A DNA stretch of 64,000 bases from Gemmatales bacterium (GTDB lineage: Bacteria > Planctomycetota > Planctomycetia > Gemmatales > HRBIN36): NCBI GenBank assembly GCA_041640595.1, contig JBEPZY010000006.1, positions 1 through 64,000 of the forward strand, given 5' to 3'. A program made the translations under genes and the position numbers. Below are positions 6,091 through 44,900 of the stretch, one piece after another. Each line of letters begins with the position of its first letter. Position 1 is the first letter of the stretch. Below the pieces are notes generated by a model. It was given only the letters and a program-made list of their open reading frames with translations. It was not told the origin of the DNA and searched no databases.

Positions 6091-6870
6091 TCAATCCACT
6101 TCGTATGTGTGAGCGATATGCTTGCGTTTCTTCGTGGGGCGAACAATGACATAACCGTTGTTCGGCCCGGGCACCGCTCCCTTGACGAGCAACAGATTGT
6201 TGGCTTCATCCAACCTCACGATGGCCAGGTTGCGAATGGTGACTCGCTCGTTACCATACCGACCGGCCATGCGTTTGCCTTTTTTCATCCGCCCACTGTT
6301 ACCACGGTCTGTAGCATGACCGCTCAAGCTACCAGGAGCCCGGTGGTGACGTTTGACACCGTGGGATGCTCCCAAACCAGAAAATCCCCAGCGCTTCATG
6401 ACCCCCGAAAAACCTCGCCCTTTCGTCCAGCCGGTTACATCTACAGCCTGAACACCTTCGAACACCTTCACCGTCAGCTGGTCGCCGACCTTCACGGCGA
6501 GGTCGTCTCGCAGCTTGGCCGCTACCAGGCCGTTCTCCGTCTGCACCGCCGTGGTGTCCAGACGAAACTCTTTGATAAAGCGTTTCGGTTCGCAATTGGC
6601 TTTCGGGGGAATCCGCACACCGGCTGCCAGTAAGGCTCGCCGACGTTTGGAATCAAGTTCTGCTACGTGTCCGCGTTCGGCACGACTGGCTTTGCGACGG
6701 GGTTTATCGTCGAAACCCAGCTGGACCGCCGCATAGCCGTCCCGCTGTGGTTCGCGCACTTGCAGGACAGTGCACGGCCCGACTTCCAGCACGGTCACCG
6801 GCACGGCTAGACCCGAGGCATCGTATATCTGCGTCATCCCGATTTTTCTGCCCAGCAAACCGACCGACAT
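6091..6870 (-). CDS. rplC: 50S ribosomal protein L3
   Basis: GLLGRKIGMTQ, DGYAAVQLGF, KGRGFSGVMKRWGF, KGAVPG. Start set at ATG 6870 behind an AAGGAG RBS. Confidence 0.97.
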   Translation of the reverse strand: MSVGLLGRKIGMTQIYDASGLAVPVTVLEVGPCTVLQVREPQRDGYAAVQLGFDDKPRRKASRAERGHVAELDSKRRRALLAAGVRIPPKANCEPKRFIKEFRLDTTAVQTENGLVAAKLRDDLAVKVGDQLTVKVFEGVQAVDVTGWTKGRGFSGVMKRWGFSGLGASHGVKRHHRAPGSLSGHATDRGNSGRMKKGKRMAGRYGNERVTIRNLAIVRLDEANNLLLVKGAVPGPNNGYVIVRPTKKRKHIAHTYEVD

Positions 6871-24926: not shown

Positions 24927-26069
24927 ATGCGTCAGGTGCTGATCCGGATTCCCACGCCTTTTGGGCAGCTGCCGATTTTCTCCTTTGGCATGATGTTGCT
25001 GGTAGCGTTTCTGACCGGCACCTGGCTTGCCTCGCGTCGCGCCCGTCGGGAAAACGTCCCCACGGAGGCTTTGTGGGACATTGCTTTGTACGTGTTTTTC
25101 GCGGGTATCATTGGTGCTCGAGTATTGCATTTCATTCTCTTTCCGCAACGGGGCAATGTCTGGGAGCAATTACTTCGTTTTGTGAAAATCTGGGAAGGTG
25201 GTCTGGTCTTCTACGGGTCGCTTGCCGGCGGGCTACTCGGATTCGTTCTCGCCTACCTTTTCGTCATCCGCCGACTCGGCCTGCGCACCTGGCAAATCGC
25301 CGACATTATCGCTCCTTCCATCGCCCTGGGAATTTTTTTCGGAAGGATTGGGTGTTTCCTCAATGGTTGTTGCTTCGGTAACGTCGCGGATCCATCGGTG
25401 CCCGGTTGGTTGACAGTTCGTTTTCCGCCACTGAGTATTCCTCACCGTGCGCTGGCAGAACAGGGATATCAAACGCTGTTGGGCTTCGGTGTCCTCGGAC
25501 ACGATTCACCCGACCAGGACAGCCGTACCGTCATGTTTGTGGAGCCCGACACACCAGCAGCCCAGGCCGGGCTTAAACCTGGCGATGTCATCGTGGAATT
25601 GAACGAACAAGCCGTGGAATCCGGCGAACAATTAATGAAACGGCTCTTCGAACTAATCAGCCAGGCTGGCGGTCCTCGTGCAACACTCACGGAACTGCAC
25701 CTTTCCGTGAGCGTGCTTCGCGGCGGACAAGTTTTGCGACCTGACAGTGAAACGGGCGTGGCTACTTTTACGCCGCCTTGGAGTTTGCCACTCTACCCGA
25801 CCCAGTTGCTGAGTGCTGCTGATGGCCTGCTGTTGTGGGGGTTTTTGAGTTTGCTGTATCCGCTCCGGCGACGCTATGGGGAAATTTTCGCCATCTTTCT
25901 CGCCGCTTACGCTTTCAGCAGGTTTTTCATCGAACAGCTCCGTAGCGACACCCCCCGCATTTATTGTGGCATGACCTTCTCACAGTTAGTGAGTATCGGT
26001 CTGCTGGTTGCAGCGTGCGGATTGTGGCTGGCTCTGTATCGCTGGGGGACGAAACCGGAGAGTGCGTAA
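24927..26069 (+). CDS. lgt: Prolipoprotein diacylglyceryl transferase with inserted PDZ-like domain
   Basis: GAR, IWEGGLVFYG, GRIGCFLNGCC, YPTQL, RFFIEQLR; insert VEPDTPAAQAGLKPGDVIVELN. Confidence 0.9.
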   Translation: MRQVLIRIPTPFGQLPIFSFGMMLLVAFLTGTWLASRRARRENVPTEALWDIALYVFFAGIIGARVLHFILFPQRGNVWEQLLRFVKIWEGGLVFYGSLAGGLLGFVLAYLFVIRRLGLRTWQIADIIAPSIALGIFFGRIGCFLNGCCFGNVADPSVPGWLTVRFPPLSIPHRALAEQGYQTLLGFGVLGHDSPDQDSRTVMFVEPDTPAAQAGLKPGDVIVELNEQAVESGEQLMKRLFELISQAGGPRATLTELHLSVSVLRGGQVLRPDSETGVATFTPPWSLPLYPTQLLSAADGLLLWGFLSLLYPLRRRYGEIFAIFLAAYAFSRFFIEQLRSDTPRIYCGMTFSQLVSIGLLVAACGLWLALYRWGTKPESA

Positions 26070-28014: not shown

Positions 28015-29919
28015 CTAACCACCGTGGATGCTGGCCAGGTCGCGGAGCAAAGCAGCCAGGGAAGGTTCGACCCAGTCGAGCACCGAACGAGGCCAAACAC
28101 CCAGCAGGATGGCCAGCACGACGATCGGCAAAGCACATAAGAATTCGCGGAAGGTAATCTCCGGCAAATCCGGGCTGGGCGGACGATGGCCCAGATACAC
28201 CCGCTGCAGAGTCCACAGAATATAGCCCGCGGTAATGACGACGGTAGCGGCAGCCAGGACGGCAAACACTTTACCCGCCCATTCACTGCCGGGCGGCGTA
28301 AAGTTCCAGGTGCCGAGCACGGTGAAGAATTCTCCCGGAAAACCGCAAAGTCCCGGCAAGCCCATAGCCGCGAAAAAGATGATGAAACTCAGCCCGGCAT
28401 AAAGCGGCATAGCATTGGCCAGACCACCCATGCGATCCAGGTCGCGGTGATGCAACCGGTCATAGATGACTCCGACCATAAAGAACATGCCCGGCGAACT
28501 CAGCCCATGGGCGAGCATTTGGAACATGGCACCGTTCATTCCCCAGTTCCAGAACTGCGACCGTTCCAGCGACGTCCAGATGGCAATGCCCAGCAGCACA
28601 TAACCCATGTGGCTGATGGAACTGTAGGCGACGAGTTTTTTGAAATCGGTCTGGGCCATAGCAGCAAACGCCCCGTAAACAATGCTGATTACTCCGAACA
28701 AGGCTACCCACCAGGCCAACGCATACGCCGCCCACGGGCAGATGGGGTAAGCAATACGCAGCAAACCATATCCGCCCATTTTCAGCAGGATGCCAGCCAG
28801 GATCATGCTGATCGGAGTCGGTGCCTCGACGTGAGCATCGGGCAACCAGGTGTGGAAAGGCACCATGGGTAATTTGATTGCGAAGCCGATAAATAGCAGC
28901 ACGAACATGATTAGCTGGAAAGTGGGCGAGAAAATCTGGAAACGTTCCTTCTGAGCAGCCACCTGATTGCGCAGTTGGCGGGCCTGTTCGATTCGCTGCG
29001 TGTCGCGGCTGGCCAGGGCCTGTTCGTACTGCTGTTCGACGCGCTGCCATTCGGCTTCGAGCCGTGCGGATTCCCGACCTACTTTGTGCAAAAGCAGGAT
29101 GTCGAAGGTGTTGAGCGTGGCTTCGCCGCGTGCCTGTCGTTGCCGCAACGCCTCTTCCAGAGCGCGGGCTTCCCGCTGAAGTTGCGTGCGATCCGCGTCG
29201 GATGCTTGTCCCGCTCGATGTTGCAACCAATTTACGAGTGGACGCAGATCGGCAAAGTAAAACGCGATCATCGCAATCAGGATGAGCACACTGCCGAGCA
29301 AGGTGTACAGGAAAAACTTGATAGCGGCATATTCCCGGCGTGGTCCGCCCCACAAACCGATCAGGAAATACATCGGCAGCAGCATCACTTCCCAAAAGAC
29401 GTAGAACAGGAAAAAGTCCAGGGCCAGAAACGTTCCCATCATGCCAGTTTCCAGGATCAGGAACAGAATCAGGTACCCCCGAACGGCGTTTTCGATGTTC
29501 CAGCTGGCTCCAATGGCCAGCACGCAAATCAGCGCCGTCAACACCACCAGCGATACACTGATGCCATCAGCACCGAGGAAGTAATCAATATTGAAGCGAC
29601 CAATCCAGGACCGGCGAGCCACCAGGTCAGCGTCGTTGTGTCCCCGACCAGCTTCGTTGATCCGTGCCTGATCGGCGCGTGCTGCCAGCGTATGTCCGTC
29701 CTGGCCGGTGTGCCGATAGCTGTCGAGCAACTGATACCAGTCCACAAGCAAAAACACGCTCAACAGCAACGTCAGCACGGTGCCTGCCAGGGCCACTATC
29801 CGCATCAGGTTCTCCTGGCCGCGAGGAATCAGCAATAGCAAAAGAGCAAAGAGCGAAGGGACGAAAATAATCCCAGTCATCAGCCAGAGGTCGTATTCGA
29901 AGTATGGCATAGCCAGCAT
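28015..29919 (-). CDS. nuoM: NADH-quinone oxidoreductase subunit M
   Basis: FYVFWEVMLLPMYFLIG, PFHTWLPDAHVEAP, KKLVAYSSISHMG. Confidence 0.95.
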   Translation of the reverse strand: MLAMPYFEYDLWLMTGIIFVPSLFALLLLLIPRGQENLMRIVALAGTVLTLLLSVFLLVDWYQLLDSYRHTGQDGHTLAARADQARINEAGRGHNDADLVARRSWIGRFNIDYFLGADGISVSLVVLTALICVLAIGASWNIENAVRGYLILFLILETGMMGTFLALDFFLFYVFWEVMLLPMYFLIGLWGGPRREYAAIKFFLYTLLGSVLILIAMIAFYFADLRPLVNWLQHRAGQASDADRTQLQREARALEEALRQRQARGEATLNTFDILLLHKVGRESARLEAEWQRVEQQYEQALASRDTQRIEQARQLRNQVAAQKERFQIFSPTFQLIMFVLLFIGFAIKLPMVPFHTWLPDAHVEAPTPISMILAGILLKMGGYGLLRIAYPICPWAAYALAWWVALFGVISIVYGAFAAMAQTDFKKLVAYSSISHMGYVLLGIAIWTSLERSQFWNWGMNGAMFQMLAHGLSSPGMFFMVGVIYDRLHHRDLDRMGGLANAMPLYAGLSFIIFFAAMGLPGLCGFPGEFFTVLGTWNFTPPGSEWAGKVFAVLAAATVVITAGYILWTLQRVYLGHRPPSPDLPEITFREFLCALPIVVLAILLGVWPRSVLDWVEPSLAALLRDLASIHGG

Positions 29920-29983
29920 CCCTGTTGGAAAGTGTCTGGAGAGAGCCGTTTGTTGGCGACCGGCATCACGCCATCGGTCATGG

Positions 29984-32557
29984 CTAGCCGATCAGCGCCA
30001 GGATATAGGAGACCACGGCAAAGATGCCGATGGCCGCCAAAGCTAGAAACAGCACGTAGTTGCGGAGCAATCCGGTCTGGACATTGCGAAGCCAGGCACC
30101 GATGGCGTAGATGATATTGGCGGTGAGATTCACCAGCCCGTCAATGATGCCGAGGTCAAATCGGCCATCCCATTGCGAGATTTTGACGGTAGCCCGGGCA
30201 CTGCCGTCCACCAGTCCGTCAATAACCTGCAGATCAAACCAGCGGCAGACCCGTGCCAGTACCAGCGCCGGCCGAACCACCACCCAGCGATACAGCTCGT
30301 CGAAATGCCACTTTTCCCACAGGAAAGCATACACCCGCGCAAACTGTTCGCGGGTTGCCTCGGGATCCAGGTAACCCCAGTAATAGATGGTGGTGGCGAG
30401 CAAGAAACCGATACCCGCCGATAACAGGGCGAGCAACCCGGCCAGTGTCCCGGGCTCAGGCAGGTGAATATTCGGAAAAGCTTCCGGTTGCTCCACGTAT
30501 TTGCGCACGGGCGCCAGGAAAGCATCTTGCAGCTTGTTTTCCGAGTCCGGATGCAGATAAATGGGCATTTCGTGGTCGAGGTAGTGCTCCAGTGCACTGG
30601 CATGCGGATCCCAGGGCGGTAACCCCCAAGCCACGGTTACGCTGAAAAACGCCAGCACCACCAGCGGCAGGGTCATCACCCACGGCGACTCGTGGGCGTG
30701 CTGGTAGAGGTGCTCGTCGCGCGGCTCACCGGTAAAGGTCAAATACCATAGCCGGAACATATAGAACGCAGTCATCGCCACGGTCACCAGCGGCAGCAGG
30801 AACAGCAGTATGTGCTGGGGATAATGCGTAACGAAAGCCAGGGCGCTGACCATAATCGCATCCTTGCTGTACCAGCCGCTGAAAAGAGGCGCCCCAGCAA
30901 TGGCAAGCACTCCGACCAGCATCGTGCACGCCGTGATTTTCATCTTGTCGTATAGTCCGCCCATTTTCATCATGTCCTGCTCGTGATGGCAGCCGTGAAT
31001 GACGCTGCCCGAACCCAGAAACAGCAACGCCTTGAAAAAGGCATGCGTCAACAGATGGAACAGTCCGGCGATCCAACCCCCCACTCCGAGAGCCAGCATC
31101 ATGAACCCGAGCTGGCTGACCGTGGAATACGCCAGCACTTTCTTGATGTCGGTTTGCACCAGGGCAATGGTGGCCGCGATGAATAGCGTCGCCGCACCTA
31201 CGTAGGCAATGATCAGCAACACCTCTGGGGTGAAGAGCGGAAATGCCCGTCCGACCAGGTAAACGCCAGCGGCTACCATTGTCGCCGCATGTATCAACGC
31301 ACTCACCGGGGTCGGCCCTTCCATAGCATCCGGCAACCAGACGTGCAGCGGAAATTGAGCCGATTTACCTACACACCCCAGGAAGATGCCAATCCCAGCC
31401 GCTACCAGTGCCCAGTATGGGATCACTGCCAAACCTTCGTTCGTCGGAAAGGTGCTGGCGGAAATTCCTTCCGGACTGGTCAAATCGTCGCCGTGAAAAT
31501 GTCCGGTGAACAGCAGAACGAAATCTCCTTGCGGATGGAGGCGGTAACGCACTTCCGCACCGCTGACGGCTGCCGTCTCAATGGGTTGTACCCGAACGAA
31601 ATTGCCAAACCATTTGTCCAGTTCGCCGGGCAACGGATCACCGTGCGCGTCTTTATCCGGCATACGCACGCGGCTGAACACCCCCGGTTCCAATTCCTGG
31701 CGAACCTCACCCTTGGCGGTCTTTCGTTCCTGCACCGTATCGTGAAGGGTCAGGGTACCGGTATAGGTCCACAAAATGGCCAGGCCCACGATGAATCCGG
31801 CATCCCCGATACGGTTGGTGATGAAAGCTTTGTTGGCCGCGTTGGAAGCACTCTGTCGCTCGTAGTAGTATCCGATGAGCAAATAGGAACAAATGCCCAC
31901 CAGCTCCCAGCTGATGAAAATCTGAAAAAGGTTATCGGCCAGCACCAGGTTGAGCATCGAAAAGCAAAACAGCGACATGTAGGTGAAAAATCGCGGATAG
32001 CGACCGCGACGAACGACGTGGGCCTGGTGGTCCTCCACCTCCGCTTGCAACTCCTCAGCCATGTAGCCGGTGGAGAAAATGTGAATCAGCGTGGCCACCA
32101 ACGTGATCATGACGAACATGGCGACGGTTAAACCATCCACATAAAAGCCCAGTCGAAATGCCGACGCCTGGCCCACTTCGCCGCTACTGGTTTGCGCCCA
32201 GACTACGCCTCCCTGCCAGGGCGGTATCGCGGGATCACGCTTCCTGGCTGGAATATGGTCGTGGCTGCGGTCATGGCGATCAGACATGCCTCCCTGAGCC
32301 GGCTTGTGTTCGTGCCCATGGCCGTGTTTATCGTGGTGGCTGGCAGAACCGTGCTCGTGGTCATGAGTGAGCAAACCACTGTAAGGCAAATAATAGGCAA
32401 AGGCTATCACGCTGAGAACAAAAGCACCTCCGATGGCCGCAGTGGCCACCCAGCCTGCCATTCGACCCCAGTATCGGCCCCCAATGAGCAGGAGCAAAAA
32501 CGAAACCAGTGGCAGGAGTGTGGCAGTGACCAGCAGCCAACCGGGATTTTCCATCAT
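29984..32557 (-). CDS. nuoL: NADH-quinone oxidoreductase subunit L
   Basis: WELVGICSY, KSAQFPLHVWLPDAMEGPTPVSALIHAATMV, HAFFKALLFL. Confidence 0.95.
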   Translation of the reverse strand: MMENPGWLLVTATLLPLVSFLLLLIGGRYWGRMAGWVATAAIGGAFVLSVIAFAYYLPYSGLLTHDHEHGSASHHDKHGHGHEHKPAQGGMSDRHDRSHDHIPARKRDPAIPPWQGGVVWAQTSSGEVGQASAFRLGFYVDGLTVAMFVMITLVATLIHIFSTGYMAEELQAEVEDHQAHVVRRGRYPRFFTYMSLFCFSMLNLVLADNLFQIFISWELVGICSYLLIGYYYERQSASNAANKAFITNRIGDAGFIVGLAILWTYTGTLTLHDTVQERKTAKGEVRQELEPGVFSRVRMPDKDAHGDPLPGELDKWFGNFVRVQPIETAAVSGAEVRYRLHPQGDFVLLFTGHFHGDDLTSPEGISASTFPTNEGLAVIPYWALVAAGIGIFLGCVGKSAQFPLHVWLPDAMEGPTPVSALIHAATMVAAGVYLVGRAFPLFTPEVLLIIAYVGAATLFIAATIALVQTDIKKVLAYSTVSQLGFMMLALGVGGWIAGLFHLLTHAFFKALLFLGSGSVIHGCHHEQDMMKMGGLYDKMKITACTMLVGVLAIAGAPLFSGWYSKDAIMVSALAFVTHYPQHILLFLLPLVTVAMTAFYMFRLWYLTFTGEPRDEHLYQHAHESPWVMTLPLVVLAFFSVTVAWGLPPWDPHASALEHYLDHEMPIYLHPDSENKLQDAFLAPVRKYVEQPEAFPNIHLPEPGTLAGLLALLSAGIGFLLATTIYYWGYLDPEATREQFARVYAFLWEKWHFDELYRWVVVRPALVLARVCRWFDLQVIDGLVDGSARATVKISQWDGRFDLGIIDGLVNLTANIIYAIGAWLRNVQTGLLRNYVLFLALAAIGIFAVVSYILALIG

Positions 32558-32563
32558 AGCCTT

Positions 32564-32878
32564 TTATCCCTTCAGTTCCTCAGCGGTATCCACGTCCACG
32601 GTGAGATAGTTGTTGTAAAAGTTCAAGACAATGGCCAGAGCGATGGCCGCTTCGGCAGCTGCGAGCACAATGGTAAAGAGTGCAAAAATCTGGCCTTCCA
32701 CCCGGAAAGCCTCGTGGAACCGGGCGAAAGCAGCAAAGTTCACCGTGGCTCCGTTAAGCACCAGTTCGACACCCATCAGCACGCCGATGGCATTGCGTTT
32801 GATGGCCATACACACTACACCGCAGACGAATAACACTGCACCAATCAGCAGATAGTGCGTTAGTCCAATGCCAGTCAT
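32564..32878 (-). CDS. nuoK: NADH-quinone oxidoreductase subunit K
   Basis: KRNAI..LMGVELVLN, AAAEAAIALA. Confidence 0.95.
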   Translation of the reverse strand: MTGIGLTHYLLIGAVLFVCGVVCMAIKRNAIGVLMGVELVLNGATVNFAAFARFHEAFRVEGQIFALFTIVLAAAEAAIALAIVLNFYNNYLTVDVDTAEELKG

Positions 32879-32985
32879 GTGGATATCCTTGCTGAGTTAG
32901 GCAATGATTGCTCACCTCGCTGAGCCGCGCTTCGGGCCGATAGGTGTAACAATCCACGCACCGAGGCGGGCGTAATCAAAGCCTT

Positions 32986-33642
32986 TCATCTTTCGGCTGA
33001 CGCCATGGAAGCCGCGCGTTTTCGCCGTGGCCGAGCCAGATAGGCCGCACCGATCAGCACCACCAGTAAATGCACCGAGACAATTTCAAACGGTAGCAAA
33101 TAAGCCGATGCGCTGCGTTGGACTGATGCTTTTTTGCCTTTTTCAGGACCTGGAGCTTCAGCAGTCGGTTTGGCACTTACGTTGGGCAAAGCAGATCGCG
33201 GCTGCACGGAAACATCGCCGAGCAGCGCCCTCCCCAATTGCTCCGTGTGGTACATCTGCTTCGGGTCGTCGGGCATAGCCGCTTCCGGAAGCTTCGACCA
33301 GTCAGCGAAAAACCAGCTGGCGGCTATCAATCCATATAGCAATAAGCCGACGATAATCGCCATAGCCCATTCGCCTGCTCCCGCCCGCAACTGAATGAAG
33401 GGCCCGGTCGCGGTCAGCATCACGCCGAAAATCACCAGTACCAGCGTCCCGCCAACGTACACAAACAGCTGTGTAGCCCCCAGAAAATCGAGTCCGAGCA
33501 AGAAAAACAATCCAGCCGTTCCCGCGAGCGTAAAGAGCAACCAGATCGCGCAGCGCACGATGTGTTGCGTAATCACCACCATCACCGCACATACAGCGGT
33601 GCCGAGAGCGACAATCCAGAAGAGTATTTCGCTGGCGTTCAT
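32986..33642 (-). CDS. nuoJ: NADH-quinone oxidoreductase subunit J
   Basis: QLFVYVGG..VLVIFGVML, YLLPFEIVSVHLLVVLIGA. Start set at ATG 33642. Confidence 0.93.
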   Translation of the reverse strand: MNASEILFWIVALGTAVCAVMVVITQHIVRCAIWLLFTLAGTAGLFFLLGLDFLGATQLFVYVGGTLVLVIFGVMLTATGPFIQLRAGAGEWAMAIIVGLLLYGLIAASWFFADWSKLPEAAMPDDPKQMYHTEQLGRALLGDVSVQPRSALPNVSAKPTAEAPGPEKGKKASVQRSASAYLLPFEIVSVHLLVVLIGAAYLARPRRKRAASMASAER

Positions 33643-33704
33643 GCTTTTATGTCCCGAGCCGAAGCCGATAATCGTCTGATTTGTCCAGCCAGGCATCCAT
33701 AGTG

Positions 33705-34802
33705 TTACCGAGGAGCTGCTGGAAATGCTGGAGGATTGCGGAATGGTAATTTCACCCAGCTAGGAAAGACACTGTGCCATACCAACGGCAGCAGACTGGC
33801 GCCCAGCAACAAAAAGCAGGCGATGGGGAGCAGATATTTCAAACAGGTGGTCATCACCTGGTCAATCCGCAGCCGCGGCAAGGTCCAGCGAACCCACATC
33901 ATCACGAAAACCAGTATCCAGCATTTGGCGATAAAAACCAGCACGCTAAGCACTACGTAAAGCAACCAGGCGTTTTCAAACACCCAATCGCTCAAGCTCG
34001 CGGGTACTACCCCGGTGTGCCAGCCGCCTAAAAACAACGTCGTGGCAATACCGCTTACCGCAAACATTGAGCCATACTCCGCCATGAAGAAAAACGACCA
34101 GCGCAGTCCGCTATATTCAGTATGGAATCCCGCCACCAATTCGCTCTCGGCTTCGGCTAAATCGAAAGGAGCACGCTTGCAGCTAGCTGTGGCACAGGTG
34201 AAATACGTCCAGAACGCCAGAAAAGTGAACGGGTCGTGGAAGACATACCAGTTCCAGAACAGCCCGGCCTGCTGCTGGGAGATAACGTTGAGGTTGAGCG
34301 TGCCGGCCACCAGGACCGGTATAAGCACGCAGATGGCCATCGGCACCTCGTAACTGACCACTTGGGCAGCTTCGCGCATCCCGCCGAACAAAGCCCATTT
34401 ACTCCCCGAGCTGTACCCAGCCAGGATCACGCCGAACACTTCCGTCGCCATCACCGCAAGCATGAAAAAAAGGGCAATGTTCATTTGCAACGCCACCACG
34501 TCCCGACTGAACGGCAACGCCAGGTACGCCAGAAACGAACCGGTAAACGCCAGATACGGCCCCAGTCGGAATAGAAATTGATCAGCGTTGGCCGGTATAA
34601 GGTCTTCCTTCGCCAGCAATTTGATGCCGTCGGCGATGGTTTGCAGCCAGCCGAATTTACCGCCGGCTCGTGTGGGGCCAAGGCGGTCTTGAATTCGACC
34701 CGCGACCTTGCGCTCCAGCCAGATGAAGAATATCGCCGACAGTGCGACGAAAGTGACCAGCACAATCGCCGCTAAGGTCAATATCAGTAGTGTCCAGCCC
34801 AC
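33705..34802 (-). CDS. nuoH: NADH-quinone oxidoreductase subunit H
   Basis: ERKVAGRIQDRLGP, DGIKLLAKE, PFDLAEAESELVAG, TLPRLRIDQ. Confidence 0.96.
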   Translation of the reverse strand: MGWTLLILTLAAIVLVTFVALSAIFFIWLERKVAGRIQDRLGPTRAGGKFGWLQTIADGIKLLAKEDLIPANADQFLFRLGPYLAFTGSFLAYLALPFSRDVVALQMNIALFFMLAVMATEVFGVILAGYSSGSKWALFGGMREAAQVVSYEVPMAICVLIPVLVAGTLNLNVISQQQAGLFWNWYVFHDPFTFLAFWTYFTCATASCKRAPFDLAEAESELVAGFHTEYSGLRWSFFFMAEYGSMFAVSGIATTLFLGGWHTGVVPASLSDWVFENAWLLYVVLSVLVFIAKCWILVFVMMWVRWTLPRLRIDQVMTTCLKYLLPIACFLLLGASLLPLVWHSVFPSWVKLPFRNPPAFPAAPR

Positions 34803-35120
34803 AGCTGAGGTCCCAGATCGCTTTGCCGCAGGGGCAAGCCCTGCCCAGGAAAATGCGTCTTCTGCCGGATATGGGTTTAATCCGGAAAATTAGAGCGTGC
34901 GCCAACGAGTTGCCAGGATTGGCCGTTACTTTATAGGACAACCTTCCCTGTGGCCAGAAGCCTGGAGAAAAATTTGGCCAGGAGCTGAAGCTTGGCCGAC
35001 CTGGATTAGCCTGACACCAATGCGGATACATTGCAGCCGCGCTGGTCCTTGTTTGTGCAAGCAGGAGCGTCAATCCGACGGACGCCACTTACTCGTGCGA
35101 TACCACCGCCCTGGGAGAAG

Positions 35121-36263
35121 ATGATGCACGCCTATGGTGCTGGATTTGGTACGGTGAAATGCCTGAGTCTGTGCACTGCCCTGATGCTGGCCGGTTGCCA
35201 GGGAAGCCCGGGTACCAGCATGGAAAAGCCGACTCCCTCGGCAGGACAAACCGAAACAAAATCTGGCACTCATTCATTCGAGGACAGGACGGCAAGGGCG
35301 AATTCGGACGGAGCCAGCGAGGTAAATTCTGGGCAGGCAAAGTCCGCCAGCTCTGCCAAAGATAAAAAGGCTGCCGAAAAGCCCAAGAAAAAGCCCAAGC
35401 CGGGCGCTTCGTCGGCCGTGAACTGGCTAACCGATTATCCAGCGGCCCGGCAGCTGGCCAGGCAGACAGGCAAGCCGATTTTCGTGGTTTTCCGGTGAGA
35501 GCGGTGAGCGGATTGCACCGCATTTGACGAACAGGTGGTTCGTCCTGCTGACCCCGAACTGATTCACCTGATGCAGCAATTCATCTGCGTTCGCATCCTG
35601 CAGATGAACGGAGTGGATATCGGCCTGTTCCAGTTCGATTTCGACCTGACCTGGGCAGCGTTTTTCCTGAACGCCGATGAGCACATCTACAGCCGCTACG
35701 GTGGCCGCGATGCCGAGGATGCCGAAGGGCGGATGTCCGTGGCGGGGCTGAAATATACCATGCGGCTGGTGCTCGAAGCACATCAGCAAGGGGAAACTGC
35801 ACCAGCCGGACAAAAACGCGAGGTGTTACCTGTCGAAAAAGCGTTTCCTGTCAAAGGCAAAGGGTGCCTGCACTGCCACCAGGTTTACGAAGGCTTACGC
35901 AAAGAAGCGCGGCGTCAGGGAACCTTTCGTTCGGAAATGCTCTGGGTCTATCCCTTGCCGGAAAACATCGGCCTGACACTTGACATAGATGCTGGCAACC
36001 GCATTCAGCGTATCCTTCCCGGTAGCGCTGCCGATCGTGCCGGGCTGCAAGCCGGTGATGTGCTCATCAGGATCGGTACTATTCCGATTCGTTCGCAAGC
36101 CGACTGCATGTACGCTTTACATGTTGCTCCACAGCAAGGCGAACTGCCGTTGCTATATAAGCGCGGCACGCAAACCTGTAAAACAACTCTGCTACTGTCT
36201 TACGGCTGGAAAAAATCCGATTTCTCCTGGCGCCCCTCCATGCGTAAGGAGAAACCGCAATAG
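35121..36263 (+). CDS. Thioredoxin-like/CxxCH/PDZ lipoprotein, probable selenoprotein with two UGA-encoded Sec residues
   Basis: ORFs 35031-35498 and 35535-36263 share a frame; readthrough gives KPIFVVFR-U-ER-U-AD-C-TAFDEQVV. LMLAGC lipobox, CLHCH, C-terminal PDZ (PGSAADRAGLQAGDVL). Confidence 0.8.
35526..35544 (+). promoter_or_regulatory. Putative bacterial SECIS hairpin
   Basis: GACGAAC-AGGTG-GTTCGTC: perfect 7 bp stem with G at loop position 2. The loop starts 25 and 34 nt after the two UGAs. Confidence 0.6.
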
Positions 36264-36280
36264 CTTCGCCCGCAAGCTGC

Positions 36281-36343
36281 CCGAACAAGCTCGCCAGCGG
36301 TCCGAACCAGCTCGCCAGCTGTCGGAACGAGGTCGCCAAATTA
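36281..36343 (+). repeat. Three imperfect 21 bp tandem repeats
   Basis: ccgaacaagctcgccagcggt / ccgaaccagctcgccagctgt / cggaacgaggtcgccaaatta. Confidence 0.75.
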
Positions 36344-36673
36344 CTGGCGCAAGCGTTTTTCTAGAAAGGAAGTGCCTCGCTTGCAGGGAGGTGGCAACTT
36401 CCTCCATGTCCAGACGTCGGTAAGTCTGGCACTTCCCACCACTTTCCACAAACCCAGGTCGAGGCAACAATCCTCTCTATGTCGAGACTTCGGTAAGTGC
36501 CAGCGCTGTTCTATCTGTCAGGGATTACCAGTTGACGCTAAATATACTACCCGTGTCCAGGCGTAATCGAGATAGAACATACCGCCAAAACTCGGGCGGC
36601 CCTCCGTGTTCACGGCAGCTTCCGTTGCACCACAGCAATGGCTGGAATCTTGCCGATTGCCTGACTCGGATGC

Positions 36674-38512
36674 TCACACCGGTTCGGCAGCACTCGACGG
36701 ACATGTTTCCCGCGCAGGCAGGTAAATGCGAAATGTGCTTCCGCGACCTGGCTGGCTTTCCACTTCGATACGGCCACCAAGCATATTCACATAGCCCTGA
36801 ACAATGGCCAGTCCCAGACCAGCGTGTCCGTCACTTTCCCCACGAGACGTGTCGGCTCGATAGAAGCGCTGGAAAATACGTGCCCGCACTTCCTCGGTCA
36901 TGCCGACACCGGTGTCCTGGACTTCGATGTAAAGCGAACCATTGTTTTGTTCAGCGGAAACCTGGACGGAACCGCCAGGCCGATTGTATTGCACAGCGTT
37001 ATCGAGCAGGTTGATGAGGATGTCGCGGAGCTTAGCCGCATCCGTGTAGCACAGCACCGATGGCACCGATGCACTGAGGGCAACCTGCTGTTGTTTTGCC
37101 AGCGGTTCGACCGTGCGAATGCAGTCCTCCACCAGCGCGGCCAGATCAAACCAGTGCCGACGTACCTGGTCCACTCCCGCGTCCAGTCGCGCCAAAGCAA
37201 GCACACGTTCGGCGAGGTGGCGAAGCTGCCGGCCAATCCGCTGACAGTTCTCCAGAGTGGCACGGTATTCCTCAGCGCTGCGAGGTCGCCGTAAAGACAC
37301 TTCCAGGGTAGTCAGCAAAGCCGCGATAGGCGTGCGAAGATCGTGCGAGATGTCGGCGATGGCCTGCTTTTCTCGCTCGAATGCCTGTTGTAAGGAGCGA
37401 AGAGTTTGCTGCAATTTTTCCACAATCGGCACCAGTTCTCGCGGCACGGGCTGGCCATCCAATGGCAGCGAAAAAGTCTTTTCATTCACCTGACTGACTG
37501 CATCAGCGATTCGGGCCAGCGGTTTTAAGTTGTTCCGAATCAACGCCCAACCTCCGATCCCGGCCCCAGCAAAGGTGGCAAGATTGGTCAACAACAAAAG
37601 CAGCCCGAAAGATCGCAACGCCGAACGGGTGTCGGCTTCGCTTTGCCGCCAGCCTTCATCGCGGCGCTGGGCGAGTCGTTCCAGTTTTTCGGCCAGCGGA
37701 GCCGTACTTCTGGCGACGGAGATAAACAGTTGCGGAGCTGATTGGTCCACAAAGGGAGGCAAGTTTCCGACTGGCGGCTTGCCTGGCGTCGGCGGGCGAA
37801 GAGTGCGTCCGGGAAACTCTGAAGGTCGCCCGCGTCCGGAAGGTCCGCTTCGTTCTGCTGGCCAGCCTCTCCACAGGAAAAACCGCCAGCGGCTTACCGG
37901 CACACGCACCGTGACTCGCCGCATGGGTTCACCTTTGGGGCTTTGAATTTCGTCATAGTACGGCTCCAATAATCGCAACTGCTCCCGCCATGTCGTCGGC
38001 AGTCGCCACGGCTCGGATAGGTTGGGTGAATAGTGCAGCACCTCCCCGTTGGGAAACGTGAACTGATAATAGAGCTCCTCTTCGCCTTCGACAAAAAATT
38101 CCTCAGAAATTTCCAGATTGGGAGCCACCAGCCAGTGCAAACGCAGGGCCAGTGGCGTATAAGCATCCTGTCCGAGCCAAATCGGCACGGTCGCAAAGGC
38201 GTTGGCGTCGAGCACAGCCGTCAAACACCCCAGGGCGAAAAACCGCAACCGCGGCCAACGCCATTGCAATCGGGCAATCCCCGCCAGAGCGTGTGCCTGG
38301 TGAAGCAAACTTTCATCGAAACGCTCTCTTTCCTCCCGTTCCGCGCTTTCATATCGAGCCTGCAACATTTCCCGAATGCCGTTCTGGCGCACTTCCAGCG
38401 AATAACGAGCCAGCGCGTACGCTGACCACGACACCCATCCCAGGACCAGCCCAAGAACCACCAGCAAGCTTAACAGCAAGCGTAATCGTATCGAACGCAT
38501 CGCATCCCTCAT
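36674..38512 (-). CDS. Sensor histidine kinase (2 TM, HAMP, HisKA, HATPase)
   Basis: DISHDLRTP, NLLDNAVQY, DTGVG, GLGLAI. Confidence 0.95.
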   Translation of the reverse strand: MRDAMRSIRLRLLLSLLVVLGLVLGWVSWSAYALARYSLEVRQNGIREMLQARYESAEREERERFDESLLHQAHALAGIARLQWRWPRLRFFALGCLTAVLDANAFATVPIWLGQDAYTPLALRLHWLVAPNLEISEEFFVEGEEELYYQFTFPNGEVLHYSPNLSEPWRLPTTWREQLRLLEPYYDEIQSPKGEPMRRVTVRVPVSRWRFFLWRGWPAERSGPSGRGRPSEFPGRTLRPPTPGKPPVGNLPPFVDQSAPQLFISVARSTAPLAEKLERLAQRRDEGWRQSEADTRSALRSFGLLLLLTNLATFAGAGIGGWALIRNNLKPLARIADAVSQVNEKTFSLPLDGQPVPRELVPIVEKLQQTLRSLQQAFEREKQAIADISHDLRTPIAALLTTLEVSLRRPRSAEEYRATLENCQRIGRQLRHLAERVLALARLDAGVDQVRRHWFDLAALVEDCIRTVEPLAKQQQVALSASVPSVLCYTDAAKLRDILINLLDNAVQYNRPGGSVQVSAEQNNGSLYIEVQDTGVGMTEEVRARIFQRFYRADTSRGESDGHAGLGLAIVQGYVNMLGGRIEVESQPGRGSTFRIYLPARETCPSSAAEPV

Positions 38513-38635
38513 CGTTCTCCGACACTCTCAATTGCGGTTACCGTCCGTACGATTATCGGCGAGTGCCTGGATGGTCGCGGACCCAGGCACTTCTACGATT
38601 GGGCATTGCCAGTTTGAATCCACGCATTGCTGCCA

Positions 38636-39319
38636 TCATACTTCATCTTCCTCGCTTCGCAGCATGTAACCTTCGCCCCAGCGGGTCAGGATGAGCGGCG
38701 GTTCGAACCCTTTGTCAATCTTTTGCCGCAGATAGCGAATGTACACGTCCACGACATTGGAAGTATTTTCGTCATGTTCGTCGTAGAGATGCTCCCAGAT
38801 CATGGGACGAGTGACCACCCGACCACGGTGGAAGGCGAGAAATTCCAAGAGCGCGTATTCGCGCGGGGTGAGATGAATGACTTTGCCACCCCGTTTGACT
38901 TTTCGAGCGGCGGTGTCAATTTCCAGGTCGTAAATGCGTATGATGGGATTTTTCACCTGATGTTTGCGACGAACCAGCGCACGGATGCGGGCGAGCAGTT
39001 CCTCAAACTGGAACGGCTTGGCCAAGTAATCATCCGCTCCCAAATTCAAGCCGTGTACCTTTTCTTCCGTGCTCCCGCGAGCAGTCAAAACCAGGACATG
39101 GGTAGTCAATCCCCGTTCCCGCCAGCGCTTCAACAGCGTCCATCCGTCCACTTTCGGCAACATGAGATCGAGCACGATGACGTCGTACTCGTTGACCCGC
39201 GCTTTGTAGTCGGCTTCCTCACCATCGTAAGCCACATCTACGGCAAACCGCTCTTCCTCTAAACCTTGCTTGAGCGCTCCCGCTAAGGTTTTATTATCTT
39301 CGACGATGAGAATCCGCAT
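38636..39319 (-). CDS. OmpR-family response regulator
   Basis: MRILIVED, LDLMLP, GADDYLAKPF, NVVDVYIRYLRQKID. Confidence 0.95.
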   Translation of the reverse strand: MRILIVEDNKTLAGALKQGLEEERFAVDVAYDGEEADYKARVNEYDVIVLDLMLPKVDGWTLLKRWRERGLTTHVLVLTARGSTEEKVHGLNLGADDYLAKPFQFEELLARIRALVRRKHQVKNPIIRIYDLEIDTAARKVKRGGKVIHLTPREYALLEFLAFHRGRVVTRPMIWEHLYDEHDENTSNVVDVYIRYLRQKIDKGFEPPLILTRWGEGYMLRSEEDEV

Positions 39320-39646
39320 GGTCAGCACTCACCGCCTTGGTCCACTGAAACCGACTCTTGGGCATCCCCCAAGGTAGTGTACGCCAGCAATTCTTAAATG
39401 GGTATGAGCAAATCAATCGCACACCGTTACGCTCACCGGGAATTGCTGGCGGGGCGAACAGGGAACACAGCTCGATAGATTTCTCGGCCCACCCTGAAGA
39501 TCCTGTATCTGATTCCGGGACCGATTGCTCTTGCCTACTTTTGTGAGCGCGGTTATGCAACCGGGTCTAGGCGGCGAGGTCAGCGGCTCGTCAAAAGGCA
39601 GGACCGCAAACCTCCCGAGTAGTACGGTGCAAACTCACGCAAGGAG

Positions 39647-42329: not shown

Positions 42330-42750
42330 GACATCGCATCATGAGCCAAACTTCCTGCAAAAACCAGGCCTTGAAACAAGCTCAACAAAATCTCTATCCT
42401 TGTGCTAAACAAACCCACGGGCACCAAAATCGCTTCGTAGAAGAACCCAGTAAACCGGTTCCAGAAACCGCGCCCAAAGCGCTTGAGTTTATCCCACCAC
42501 GGCGATCCCGTGAGGTCGACATAGGTGGCTTATTGAGCACATACTTGCCTTGTACACGTTCGTATCGCCGGCGGTAAGCGACAGCCGGTCCTCGCGCAGG
42601 AAGCGACCCGCTTGCGGATCGTACCAGCGGGCACGGTAGTAATACAGGTTCTGCCGGCACGCTAATAATACAGACTTAGGGCGGCGTCGAGTTCGCGGGC
42701 GGTGAACCTGAACCGGTCGCCCGCTGGTGGACTTGGTTCGTTCAACAGAG
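42330..42750 (-). pseudogene. Degenerate RHS core end plus toxin-tip remnant
   Basis: Frame-broken GDRFRFTARELD..LYY*RA, NLYYYRARWYDPQAGRFLREDRLSLTAGDTNVY, KYVLNKP, YVDLTG. Confidence 0.8.
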
Positions 42751-42993
42751 CGAGAAAACTGGCGTAGCCTAGACCACCGCTTAGCTACTGCTTTCATACA
42801 TCACAGATACGCGGTGAACGGGATGCAGACTCAGCTAACGGCGCACCGTGGGTCGTGTCATCTTCTTGAAATTGGTTCCTCACACCCCTAGCCTAGACGT
42901 GATTCGCCTAAGCATCTATGCAAATCAGTCCGTTATTACCCGACCGGTGATGCCGAGCATTCTTTTGGCATAGAAGACCAGCAAGCCACTGCC

Positions 42994-43311
42994 CTAGGCT
43001 CCGCCGGACCGTGTGCTTTGGATTTCCTCATATAATCGGAGGCCGCAGTGGATGCATCTTCCAGCCACCGTGTTAACATAGCACCATGTGCCATGCAGAG
43101 GCCTGCCACACCGTGGGCAAGGGAAATAAACCCAGCGCAGATTCAGCACTCCCCAAACCATGCATATAGCAATGAACAGTGCACCGGATGCCCAGAAAGG
43201 AAGCTCCAGCCAAGCCGAGACAAACATTAGACCGAACAGCATAGGTATCATAATTACAAACCAAATACGAGCAGCACGTCTTCGCCTTCGATAAACGTTC
43301 CACTCTTTCAT
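42994..43311 (-). CDS. Small membrane/zinc-ribbon protein, candidate immunity protein
   Basis: Two TM segments, CPRCG...CIHCG; lies directly downstream of an RHS tip. Confidence 0.55.
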   Translation of the reverse strand: MKEWNVYRRRRRAARIWFVIMIPMLFGLMFVSAWLELPFWASGALFIAICMVWGVLNLRWVYFPCPRCGRPLHGTWCYVNTVAGRCIHCGLRLYEEIQSTRSGGA

Positions 43312-43436
43312 AGTAGCCAGTCTCCGTGAAGCCGAGCATTTTCTTTATACACACTGTCGGGGTACATTCCACAGTCAGAAACAACCTCACTACTGCTTGT
43401 GACTATCTCCGCCATTGACCAACAGTCTACGCTAGC

Positions 43437-43940
43437 TCAGAACCATTGCCACACCCAGGTTCTTAAGTCCCCCACATGTATCCCGCCACCTACAGTGAAC
43501 GGACTGGGAAGTGTTATGCTGAAACCTTCATACGGTGGAGGAGCCTGCCGGGGCGGCTGTGGATCTTCGATGAGATAGTCAAACCCGCAATACCGAGAAC
43601 TGAAACCTATGTACGTGGTCCAGCCGGAGAGGTCTGCAACAGATTCAGCAGTAGTGACGGTCACATATGGGGATACGCCTCCTCCGAGCCCTACTCCAAA
43701 CTGCGCGCCTCCGGTGAATGTCATGCCGCCACTAAAGCCTTTTTGCCAACTCCAACCGAACGTTATGTCTACATTCACCTGAAAATGCAATATACCCAGG
43801 TATAACTCTCCACTAACGCCCAATCCGATCGTAAGTAGCCCCGAAGGGTCTCTTAATACAACCGGATTATTGAACACATAGCGGTACAAATTCGTATCGC
43901 CGGCGGTGAACGACAGCGGGTTCTCGCGGAGCAAGCGACC
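43437..43940 (-). pseudogene. Orphan RHS C-terminal toxin cassette
   Basis: LLRENPLSFTAGDTNLYRYVFNNPVVLRDPSGL followed by a Gly-rich beta-type tip; no full RHS core upstream. Confidence 0.8.
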
Positions 43941-44121
43941 CTGCTGCTCATGAAACTATAACAAGCAGCCGACTAGCGGATGCCACTTTGGTATGCGACG
44001 CGACTGCGGAGCGCAGGCCTATTGTCATGCATGTTCCGTTTTATGCTTAGGCCCGCCATCGCGTGAGTTATGGCATTTCGCCACTTTTTCGCTCTATTTC
44101 CATGTATGTTTTGTCGTATGG

Positions 44122-44337
44122 TTACGCACCTAGTCTTGCACGATATGCCGCTTCACTAAGCGCTGCAGCTAGTTTCTCCGCATCCTCAGGACGCAGGTCC
44201 ACTTCAATGTCATTGATTCCGAGAACGTTCAGCACTAGCCTGACGTACTTGCCCTCGATAAGGTAAACCCCAATATAGAGCTCCTGGCCTTCTAATTGGT
44301 CGGTGGTCGTATGCGACCAAAAGGGTTGTATACTCAT
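44122..44337 (-). CDS. Small acidic protein, candidate immunity protein
   Basis: AAGGAG RBS; immediately follows a toxin-tip remnant. Confidence 0.6.
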   Translation of the reverse strand: MSIQPFWSHTTTDQLEGQELYIGVYLIEGKYVRLVLNVLGINDIEVDLRPEDAEKLAAALSEAAYRARLGA

Positions 44338-44359
44338 ATCAATCTCCTTGTGGAAGGCT

Positions 44360-44900
44360 CACTTCTGGAAACCCGGCATCGGGTCTCCGGGGACGAATGT
44401 GTCGCGCCTAACTCCGTGATAGTGTATATGCCAATGCGGATCCCTATGCTTTGGCGGGCTGTCGTATCATAAGGATGGGCTTCAAATGTGATTGTTATTC
44501 TATCAGAAGGCTGCCAGACGACCTTATTTCTGCCGGGGGTCACGGGGCTGTCGGGAATGCGCTTACCTTCGATGCCTAACAATCTGTCCATCTCCTCTGG
44601 CGTGCTGGGCCAAACTGTCCGCTGCGTCGGGATTCCTGGTCCGCTACGGGTAAGAACGCGGCGAATGCACCGACCAGCATAGCGACCAGCGTACACAAGG
44701 GCAACAGCCCGCCGTAAGGGCCGATGACTTCTCCCAGTGGTTCCGGGTCGCCGGTAACAATAGCCACCTTGATTTTCTCGTTGGGGCCGGGCAGGCCGAA
44801 CAGCACCTCGTCGAAACTGATGTGCGTTACGATTCGGATAAAGCCAGCTTCGTCGCCGGCGGTTAAGGAGAGTGGGTCTTGGCTGAACGGACGATTGAAC
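44360..44900 (-). pseudogene. Frameshifted RHS toxin-tip cassette (His-rich, putative nuclease)
   Basis: QDPLSLTAGD remnant near 44850-44885; WPSTPEEMD...TPGRNKVVW...EAHPYD, then in a shifted frame KHRDPHWH...PGDPMPGFQK*. Confidence 0.65.

Follow-up and report, generated by a model that had tools for sequence, protein, structure and literature searches.

The gene at positions 35121 to 36263 of the window, by which we mean the whole 64,000-nucleotide stretch of contig JBEPZY010000006.1 from a Gemmatales bacterium (assembly GCA_041640595.1) that was analyzed, is on balance best explained as encoding one exported, membrane-anchored selenoprotein of the Trx7/PDZ family with two selenocysteines (Sec). 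Judged from sequence comparison, the two in-frame UGAs, TGA35496 and TGA35505, are almost certainly both recoded as Sec by means of SelA, SelB, SelD, tRNA-Sec, and a SECIS element at 35526-35544. We offer a wider reading tentatively, as possible though somewhat short of probable: a two-hairpin signal would decode these UGAs three codons apart, with a hairpin (A) that has come and gone repeatedly in the family along with the first Sec and acts as a re-spacer or as a second SECIS, and the product would be a periplasmic, heme-wired U(-3)/U diselenide oxidoreductase.

The codons in question follow each other as TGA (35496-35498), GAG, CGG, TGA (35505-35507), GCG, GAT, and TGC, and the two open reading frames called with translation table 11 (35031-35498 and 35535-36263) share a common frame. 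An earlier note on this DNA had taken these calls for one gene split by the TGAs, and this is confirmed; it is table-11 calling that divides the gene. When TGA is read as U from 35121 to 36263, a product of 380 amino acids is obtained with no further stop, which contains F-R-U126-E-R-U129-A-D-C132, the lipobox LMLAGC (C26), and CLHCH; the joined product had been described in that note with the same lipobox, the CLHCH at 35865-35879, and a C-terminal PDZ domain, all of which the sequence and Pfam bear out. A ribosome-binding-like GGAG (35114-35117) precedes the start, for which ATG 35124 may be an alternative. The true stop is the TAG at 36261-36263, and the orthologues in genomes G003 and G002 are of equal length. 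The features of the gene are as follows.

35121..36263, + strand: whole coding sequence, 380 amino acids with TGA read as Sec twice (sequence; NF041199 at 357.9 bits against a cut-off of 300)
35121..35198, + strand: putative lipoprotein-type signal peptide ending L-A-G-C26 (assigned by eye; similar lipoboxes in three same-genus orthologues)
35199..35414, + strand: tether rich in Ser, Lys, Pro, and Ala, residues 27-98, poorly conserved (sequence)
35415..35795, + strand: thioredoxin-fold domain, Thioredoxin_7/DsbH-like, residues 99-225 (Pfam; AlphaFold2; match to 3f9u_B)
35496..35498, + strand: TGA, Sec126, an additional site lying three residues ahead of the canonical CxxC (every aligned homologue has C or U here; Ala or Ser in 3fk8 and 2lst)
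35505..35507, + strand: TGA, Sec129, the canonical N-terminal (nucleophilic) thioredoxin position (alignment; published CxxU Sec site of the family)
35508..35521, + strand: hairpin A, immediately downstream of the second TGA, with a stem of 4 bp and a loop of 6 nt, -4.8 kcal/mol, candidate helper for the first UGA
35514..35516, + strand: Cys132, the second canonical thioredoxin cysteine (another residue in 14 of the 118 Sec-containing homologues that the phylum search gave)
35526..35544, + strand: hairpin B, bacterial SECIS, 7-bp stem and 5-nt loop with G at the second loop position, -8.2 kcal/mol
35865..35879, + strand: C249-L-H-C252-H253 (CxHCH), candidate attachment site for a c-type heme, in a small linker domain of helices (present in all 201 long homologues)
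35961..36221, + strand: single HtrA-type PDZ domain, the family's second PDZ being missing (Pfam and PDB searches; the NF041199 match ends at position 291 of 390)

The genome contains 93 instances of the bare pattern TGA-N6-TGA-N6-TGY. That the TGA pair in this gene is a chance occurrence is ruled out because each of the 70 aligned homologues has C or U at both TGA columns, an alignment that the earlier note had proposed as a check. Both TGAs are retained in all three same-genus orthologues, whose DNA identity to the gene is 72 to 76% for the two complete ones, the partial one reaching 83% over 138 nt. Contigs from four of four sequencing runs, belonging to four studies, span both TGAs with no other letter at either, so that the comparison with related genomes and the comparison with reads, which had also been suggested, together rule out a sequencing error. 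The runs that contain this DNA are mostly labelled hot spring or microbial mat. RNA contigs span the TGAs as well, one of them also running across intergenic DNA, and the seven-residue motif is identical in two named records labelled Gemmatales.

The readings in which the locus is a pseudogene, a sequencing error, or two separate genes are contradicted by run coverage, orthologues, and homologue counts, and we regard them as extremely improbable. One observation does point toward decay: the same-genus orthologue L066 (G002:C54) carries a downstream frameshift at about locus position 6770, near the end of the thioredoxin domain, with both TGAs intact, which may be an assembly error or real decay. 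Against this stand the constancy of the TGAs in the four runs, in the three same-genus genomes, and across 154 distinct UxxU sequences, and a covarying SECIS; moreover, the GTG start of the second open reading frame (35535) falls within the SECIS hairpin, and a start there would cut the thioredoxin domain. Behind the stop codon, short degenerate repeats occupy window positions 36254-36440, a stretch that differs between strains, and the contig from one run departs at 36254, which alters the last codons of the gene.

The product scores 357.9 bits against NCBIfam NF041199, Trx7/PDZ (seleno)protein, over model positions 2-291 of 390 (cut-off, 300), and the same model is matched by 70 of the 70 aligned homologues. 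Pfam places Thioredoxin_7 at residues 101-164 (E 1.8e-11), followed by PDZ at residues 281-345. The suggestion that the gene encodes a planctomycete Trx/PDZ (seleno)protein with a thioredoxin fold and a PDZ domain therefore holds by family model, by Pfam, and by structural matches. The Sec of the published CxxU motif, at the second motif position, is present as U129, and the first position is U rather than C. The part of the model left uncovered corresponds to the second PDZ, so that full model length is not reached; since the cut-off is still passed, the product was classed as a shortened NF041199 variant. The lipobox, the long tether, and the single PDZ are traits of this genus and not of the NF041199 family, and DNA similarity to the same-genus orthologues starts only at about 35423-35455. 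A lipobox regular expression matched 1 of 240 rows and missed the same-genus orthologues in which a lipobox is seen by eye, so it suggests no more than roughly that few family members are lipidated.

AlphaFold2, run on the 70-row alignment, returned a model with a mean pLDDT of 92.6. Residues 1-127 of the model resemble DsbD-gamma/DsbH-like folds (best match 3f9u_B, Z 13.5, rmsd 2.2, 116 residues aligned), and model residues 177-269 match HtrA-type PDZ domains. In a sequence search of the PDB, PDZ matches alone fell below E 0.001, the thioredoxin matches being weak. Identity as an HtrA/MucD protease was rejected: there is no trypsin-like domain, the HtrA-family matches are confined to PDZ and lie far below cut-off, and the AlphaFold2 model leaves no room for a protease domain. 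Nor was an AhpC-TSA domain (PF00578) found in the product at E<=1. Elsewhere in the same genome, a full-length NF041199 paralogue (L022, G000:C4:309798-310904, minus strand) encodes C-x-x-U-x-x-C with one Sec, two PDZ domains, and no lipobox, and it provides a natural in-genome control for the double-Sec gene.

The genome carries selA, selB, selD, and a tRNA-Sec with a UCA anticodon and a G discriminator, so that the selA, selB, selC, and selD looked for at the suggestion of the earlier note were all found. The sel genes lie at G000:C2:20438-23869 (minus strand) and C1:725715-726641 (minus strand), with selB and selA adjoining, and selD has its own in-frame TGA, SelD being a CxxU selenoprotein. 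A further selenoprotein candidate lies at G000:C1:211390 (plus strand), where an in-frame TGA in a peroxiredoxin-like context (TxxU) is followed by a SECIS-like hairpin. Across 141 homologue-bearing genomes, among which kin are not independent, 23 gave no selA match; in 20 of these 23 only stop-free homologues were listed, and the remaining 3, which have TGA forms, are 67, 84, and 92% complete. One or both UGAs might instead be read as Cys by a tRNA-ReC (SelC*), giving a product with at most one Sec. Passages of a 2026 paper on UxxU hydrogenases report this tRNA in about 56% of the genomes that have them, where either UGA may be read as Cys (PMC13582414). In the present genome, however, there is a single UCA tRNA, of the tRNA-Sec type with a G discriminator, and one tRNA-Cys among 50 to 51 tRNAs, and general queries found neither a second SelC-like gene nor a second UCA tRNA in the assembly (95% complete). 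Cys insertion at either codon is accordingly regarded as very improbable.

The published bacterial SECIS model calls for a spacing of 16 to 37 nt, an energy of -7.5 kcal/mol or lower, and loops that usually begin with GG or GU. The distance to hairpin B is 25 nt from TGA129 and 34 nt from TGA126, and the hairpin satisfies these rules for both UGAs. Among distinct sequences, at least 6 of its 7 pairs are formed in 138 of 154 genes with UxxU (UU), in 37 of 54 with CxxU (CU), and in 0 of 32 with CxxC (CC). Over a set of 72 UU rows, out of 109, pairing in the hairpin amounts to 95%, and 5 of its 7 pairs show compensatory changes. An Rfam scan of positions 34800-36600 recovered no family, only three chance-level matches.

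Hairpin A was scored within 18 nt behind the second UGA, with a threshold of -3 kcal/mol. It reaches this threshold in 138/154 UU, 15/54 CU, and 4/32 CC genes, and in 54/61, 15/54, and 3/31, respectively, when only genes not picked by DNA pattern are counted. Compared with synonymous shuffles that preserve the amino acids, it is significant (p<=0.05) in 102 of 154 UU genes, 5 of 54 CU genes, and 2 of 32 CC genes; in the gene at 35121..36263 itself the result is borderline (p=0.069). Flanking control windows, upstream and downstream, showed no comparable excess of hairpins. The nucleotides of hairpin A pair locally in 95 of 154 UU genes versus 4 of 54 CU genes. In the single-Sec genes they pair instead with sequence behind hairpin B, forming a lower stem (49/54 CU), a pairing that is also seen in 22/32 CC genes and so has a background. 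The register of hairpin A differs between genes, 58 to 63% of cells pairing in either fixed register, and its covariation exceeds that of all 500 shuffles, a control that ignores relatedness. On the tree, 19 of 22 disjoint contrasts, supported or not, run in the expected direction (sign test p=0.0009), and with treekit, on strongly supported branches, 12 pairs yield no significant association (median p of 0.125 and 0.45). The evidence that hairpin A tracks the first Sec is suggestive, with mixed tree-corrected support.

What hairpin A does can be read in three ways. The one that we prefer, at a little under an even chance, is that it re-spaces a single SelB-bound SECIS for the first UGA. Hairpin A would fold while the ribosome sits on the first UGA, the folded stem would absorb the extra 9 nt and so place the SECIS about as it is placed for the second UGA, and the ribosome would afterwards unwind it. 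It is rather unlikely, in our estimate, that hairpin B serves both UGAs unaided and that hairpin A is a by-product or just slows the ribosome. The distances of 25 and 34 nt both lie inside the 16-to-37-nt model, one downstream SECIS has been proposed in passages on UxxU hydrogenases (PMC13582414), the supported-branch test is not significant, and 16 of 154 UU genes have no hairpin A at -3 kcal/mol, all of which agree with an unaided hairpin B. However, the enrichment survives the amino-acid-preserving shuffles (102/154 versus 5/54 at p<=0.05), and both the 19 of 22 tree contrasts and the covariation above all 500 shuffles, relatedness being ignored in the latter, speak for a hairpin that goes with the first Sec. 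Less probable again, and in our view unlikely, is a tandem arrangement of one SECIS per UGA in which hairpin A itself binds SelB for the first. A G stands in the first two loop positions in 118 of the 138 UU genes with hairpin A, and in 93 of these 138 the loop begins 16 nt past the first TGA, the shortest spacing that the published model allows. However, this G belongs to the codon of Cys3 and is therefore fixed by the protein, the loops are mostly GCA(A) and not the usual GG/GU, and the energy, which averages -5.2, falls short of the -7.5 or lower that the model calls for. The hairpin A of the present gene has no G in its first two loop positions.

The earlier note had placed both stops at redox-cysteine sites of the thioredoxin fold. 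This stands for U129 and not for U126: in weak alignments (E 0.05-0.09) to 3fk8 and 2lst, U129 and C132 fall on the canonical CxxC, and U126, three residues earlier, falls on Ala or Ser, which makes it an extra, family-specific site. Motif positions 1 and 2 are always C or U, 14 of the 118 Sec forms have another residue at position 3, and the equivalent of Sec126 is seen solely together with the equivalent of Sec129. On this basis, we infer that positions 126 and 129 may be the indispensable pair and Cys132 auxiliary. By register, the canonical pair is U129/C132 rather than U126/U129, which counts against a Sec126/Sec129 pair.

The CxHCH on the linker is quite likely to carry heme c. CxxCH is present in 201 of 201 long homologues; C249, C252, and H253 are invariant in the 70 rows, in which H251 and H221 are nearly so (His221 in 66 of 70); and two PF01578 cytochrome c assembly genes are found in the genome. 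A CxxCH motif in a predicted exported protein, together with maturation genes in the genome, agrees with established rules for c-type maturation. Pfam matches to the CxHCH segment are weak and mixed, to cytochrome c and zinc-ribbon families, in one or two of 70 members each, and an 84-residue model of the segment (pLDDT 76.6) had a best structural match of Z 3.0 and none in Foldseek.

We lean slightly toward the protein being a periplasmic thiol/selenol oxidoreductase. In such a protein, the lipid anchor would hold the molecule on the periplasmic side, and Sec126 and Sec129 would form the working redox pair, a diselenide when oxidized, with Cys132 as an auxiliary resolving thiol. The c-type heme of the CxHCH linker would exchange electrons with the selenium pair, with His253 as its proximal ligand and His221 as a candidate distal one, and the PDZ domain would grip protein clients by their C-termini. 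X-x-x-X-x-x-C is a spacing like that of metal-cluster motifs. It might therefore be asked whether U126, U129, and C132, perhaps with CxHCH, constitute a metal or metalloid site or a sensor, CxHCH binding zinc and not heme. Besides the spacing, the weak zinc-ribbon matches in single members and the failure to recognize a cytochrome fold in the CxHCH segment would fit such a site. However, 14 of 118 Sec forms lack the third ligand, the domain has the fold of a thioredoxin, and all 70 rows retain the His that follows the second Cys, which is what one would expect of an exported protein with heme c in a genome that has cytochrome c assembly genes; a metal site is accordingly judged unlikely, and the oxidoreductase remains our preferred reading.

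A protein search of 400 other genomes of the phylum recovered homologues in 120. Loci were fetched from 105 of the 120; for the other 15 the listed matches were free of stops, and two matches were missing from the list. Of the 120, 65 have a UxxU copy, and, counted over the 105 that were fetched, 30 have CxxU alone and 10 have CxxC alone; the UxxU genomes span 32 family-level groups. By gene, the 133 homologues of this search comprise 76 UxxU, 42 CxxU, 15 CxxC, and 0 UxxC, in a set in which stop-free homologues are under-fetched; the first Sec is hence seen only with the second. A pattern scan of species genomes gave 118 loci, of which 101 were homologues: 71 from Planctomycetota, 13 from Poribacteria, 3 from Armatimonadota, 2 from Verrucomicrobiota, and 12 from other or unranked groups. 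On an unrooted tree that FastTree built from 201 rows after masking of the motif, UU takes 26 changes, of which strongly supported branches force at least 14. Two Sec three codons apart had been thought rare in the earlier note; in the sampled NF041199 family UxxU is the commonest state, and passages of a 2026 review tabulate UxxU in other bacterial families too (PMC13188914). Several Planctomycetota also have tandem or near-tandem pairs of family genes, mostly UxxU twice (L122/L123, L146/L147, L179, L257, L258, L237, and L102), L237 being a UU plus CU pair and L102 a UU copy with a C-x-x-C-x-x-L copy.

No conserved partner gene emerged across 65 flanked loci, in which ORF clustering for the most part grouped shadow frames of the family gene itself, along with small clusters from close relatives, and a promoter and terminator scan of the gene found no sigma-70-like site and no terminator behind it. 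Divergent from the selenoprotein gene lies a complex I membrane-arm cluster, nuoH-J-K-L-M (window 28015-34802, minus strand), in which nuoI is absent between H and J; Pfam identified H, J, and L, K and M were assigned by eye, and the cluster is syntenic in three same-genus genomes, the synteny being confined to the genus as far as tested. At 24927-26069 (plus strand) lies a gene for a prolipoprotein diacylglyceryl transferase (Lgt) that carries an internal PDZ insertion. Convergent on the selenoprotein gene is a pair consisting of an OmpR-type response regulator and a histidine kinase (36674-39328, minus strand). Fragments at 42489-44696 (minus strand), with short ORFs downstream, resemble what we take to be Rhs-repeat core ends.

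The product shares with NF041199 a score above cut-off, the order Thioredoxin_7 then PDZ, a Sec in the second place of the motif, and export, and it differs in having UxxUxxC with two Sec, a lipobox, a tether, and one PDZ, where the tabulated form is CxxU with one Sec. Among other double-Sec proteins, the SelL/Prx-like proteins (PF00578; tabulated as UxxC and UxxU) have a thioredoxin-type fold and two Sec three residues apart, possibly as a diselenide, which a study of SelL is said to describe. In SelL/Prx-like proteins UxxU takes the place of the canonical CxxC; they belong to another family, and in the present protein the first Sec stands three residues before the canonical CxxC and is accompanied by CxHCH and PDZ. 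DsbH/DsbD-gamma-like domains (3f9u, 2ju5, and 2lst) are similar in their thioredoxin fold (Z 10.4-13.5). MamP, which combines PDZ with c-type heme motifs (4jj0), resembles the product in its PDZ (Z 10.8, rmsd 5.2, 93 aligned), although the match is mainly via that domain and NCBIfam MamP/MamE scores are far below cut-off. No solved chain with the whole thioredoxin-CxHCH-PDZ architecture was found among the structural matches.

Passages of reviews from 2022 (PMC9312934) and 2026 (PMC13188914) give the family as CxxU, the latter with one Sec, and the 2026 passages assign UxxU to PF00578, NF041115, and FmdB proteins. A passage of the GOS paper describes a CxxU selenoprotein, "putative secreted serine protease MucD," from two sequences (PMC2398784), which, from its motif and its citation in the reviews, appears to belong to NF041199. 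A term search of the Haft preprint (10.1101/2022.07.06.499078) returned no passage on PDZ or UxxU. For the UxxU Group 4 [NiFeSe] hydrogenases, passages of the 2026 paper propose a single SECIS, with additional factors possible, and report identical SECIS architecture in CxxU and UxxU forms (PMC13582414). Those enzymes share with the present gene UGAs three codons apart, CxxU/UxxU mosaics on the tree, and the decoding question (PMC13582414); they are unrelated proteins, and in the Trx7/PDZ genes the RNA behind the second UGA differs between CxxU and UxxU. In the passages searched, which came from freely accessible literature, neither UxxU in the NF041199 family nor a second hairpin is described. 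The sample counts, set beside literature passages that give one Sec, indicate that the double-Sec state is common yet seemingly undescribed.

Since the family and UxxU motifs in other proteins are already known, the gene does not represent a new class; its new features relative to the known family are the two-Sec motif, the lipid anchor, and the single PDZ. The commonest sampled form of the family carries two Sec, while reviews list one and table-11 calling splits the gene. In the Trx7/PDZ family, genes of the CxxC, CxxU, and UxxU types can be matched with one another and have changed state many times on the tree; together with the candidate RNA element that follows these changes, they would make the insertion of two Sec 9 nt apart testable by a simple reporter. 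The answer could aid the engineering of multi-Sec proteins.
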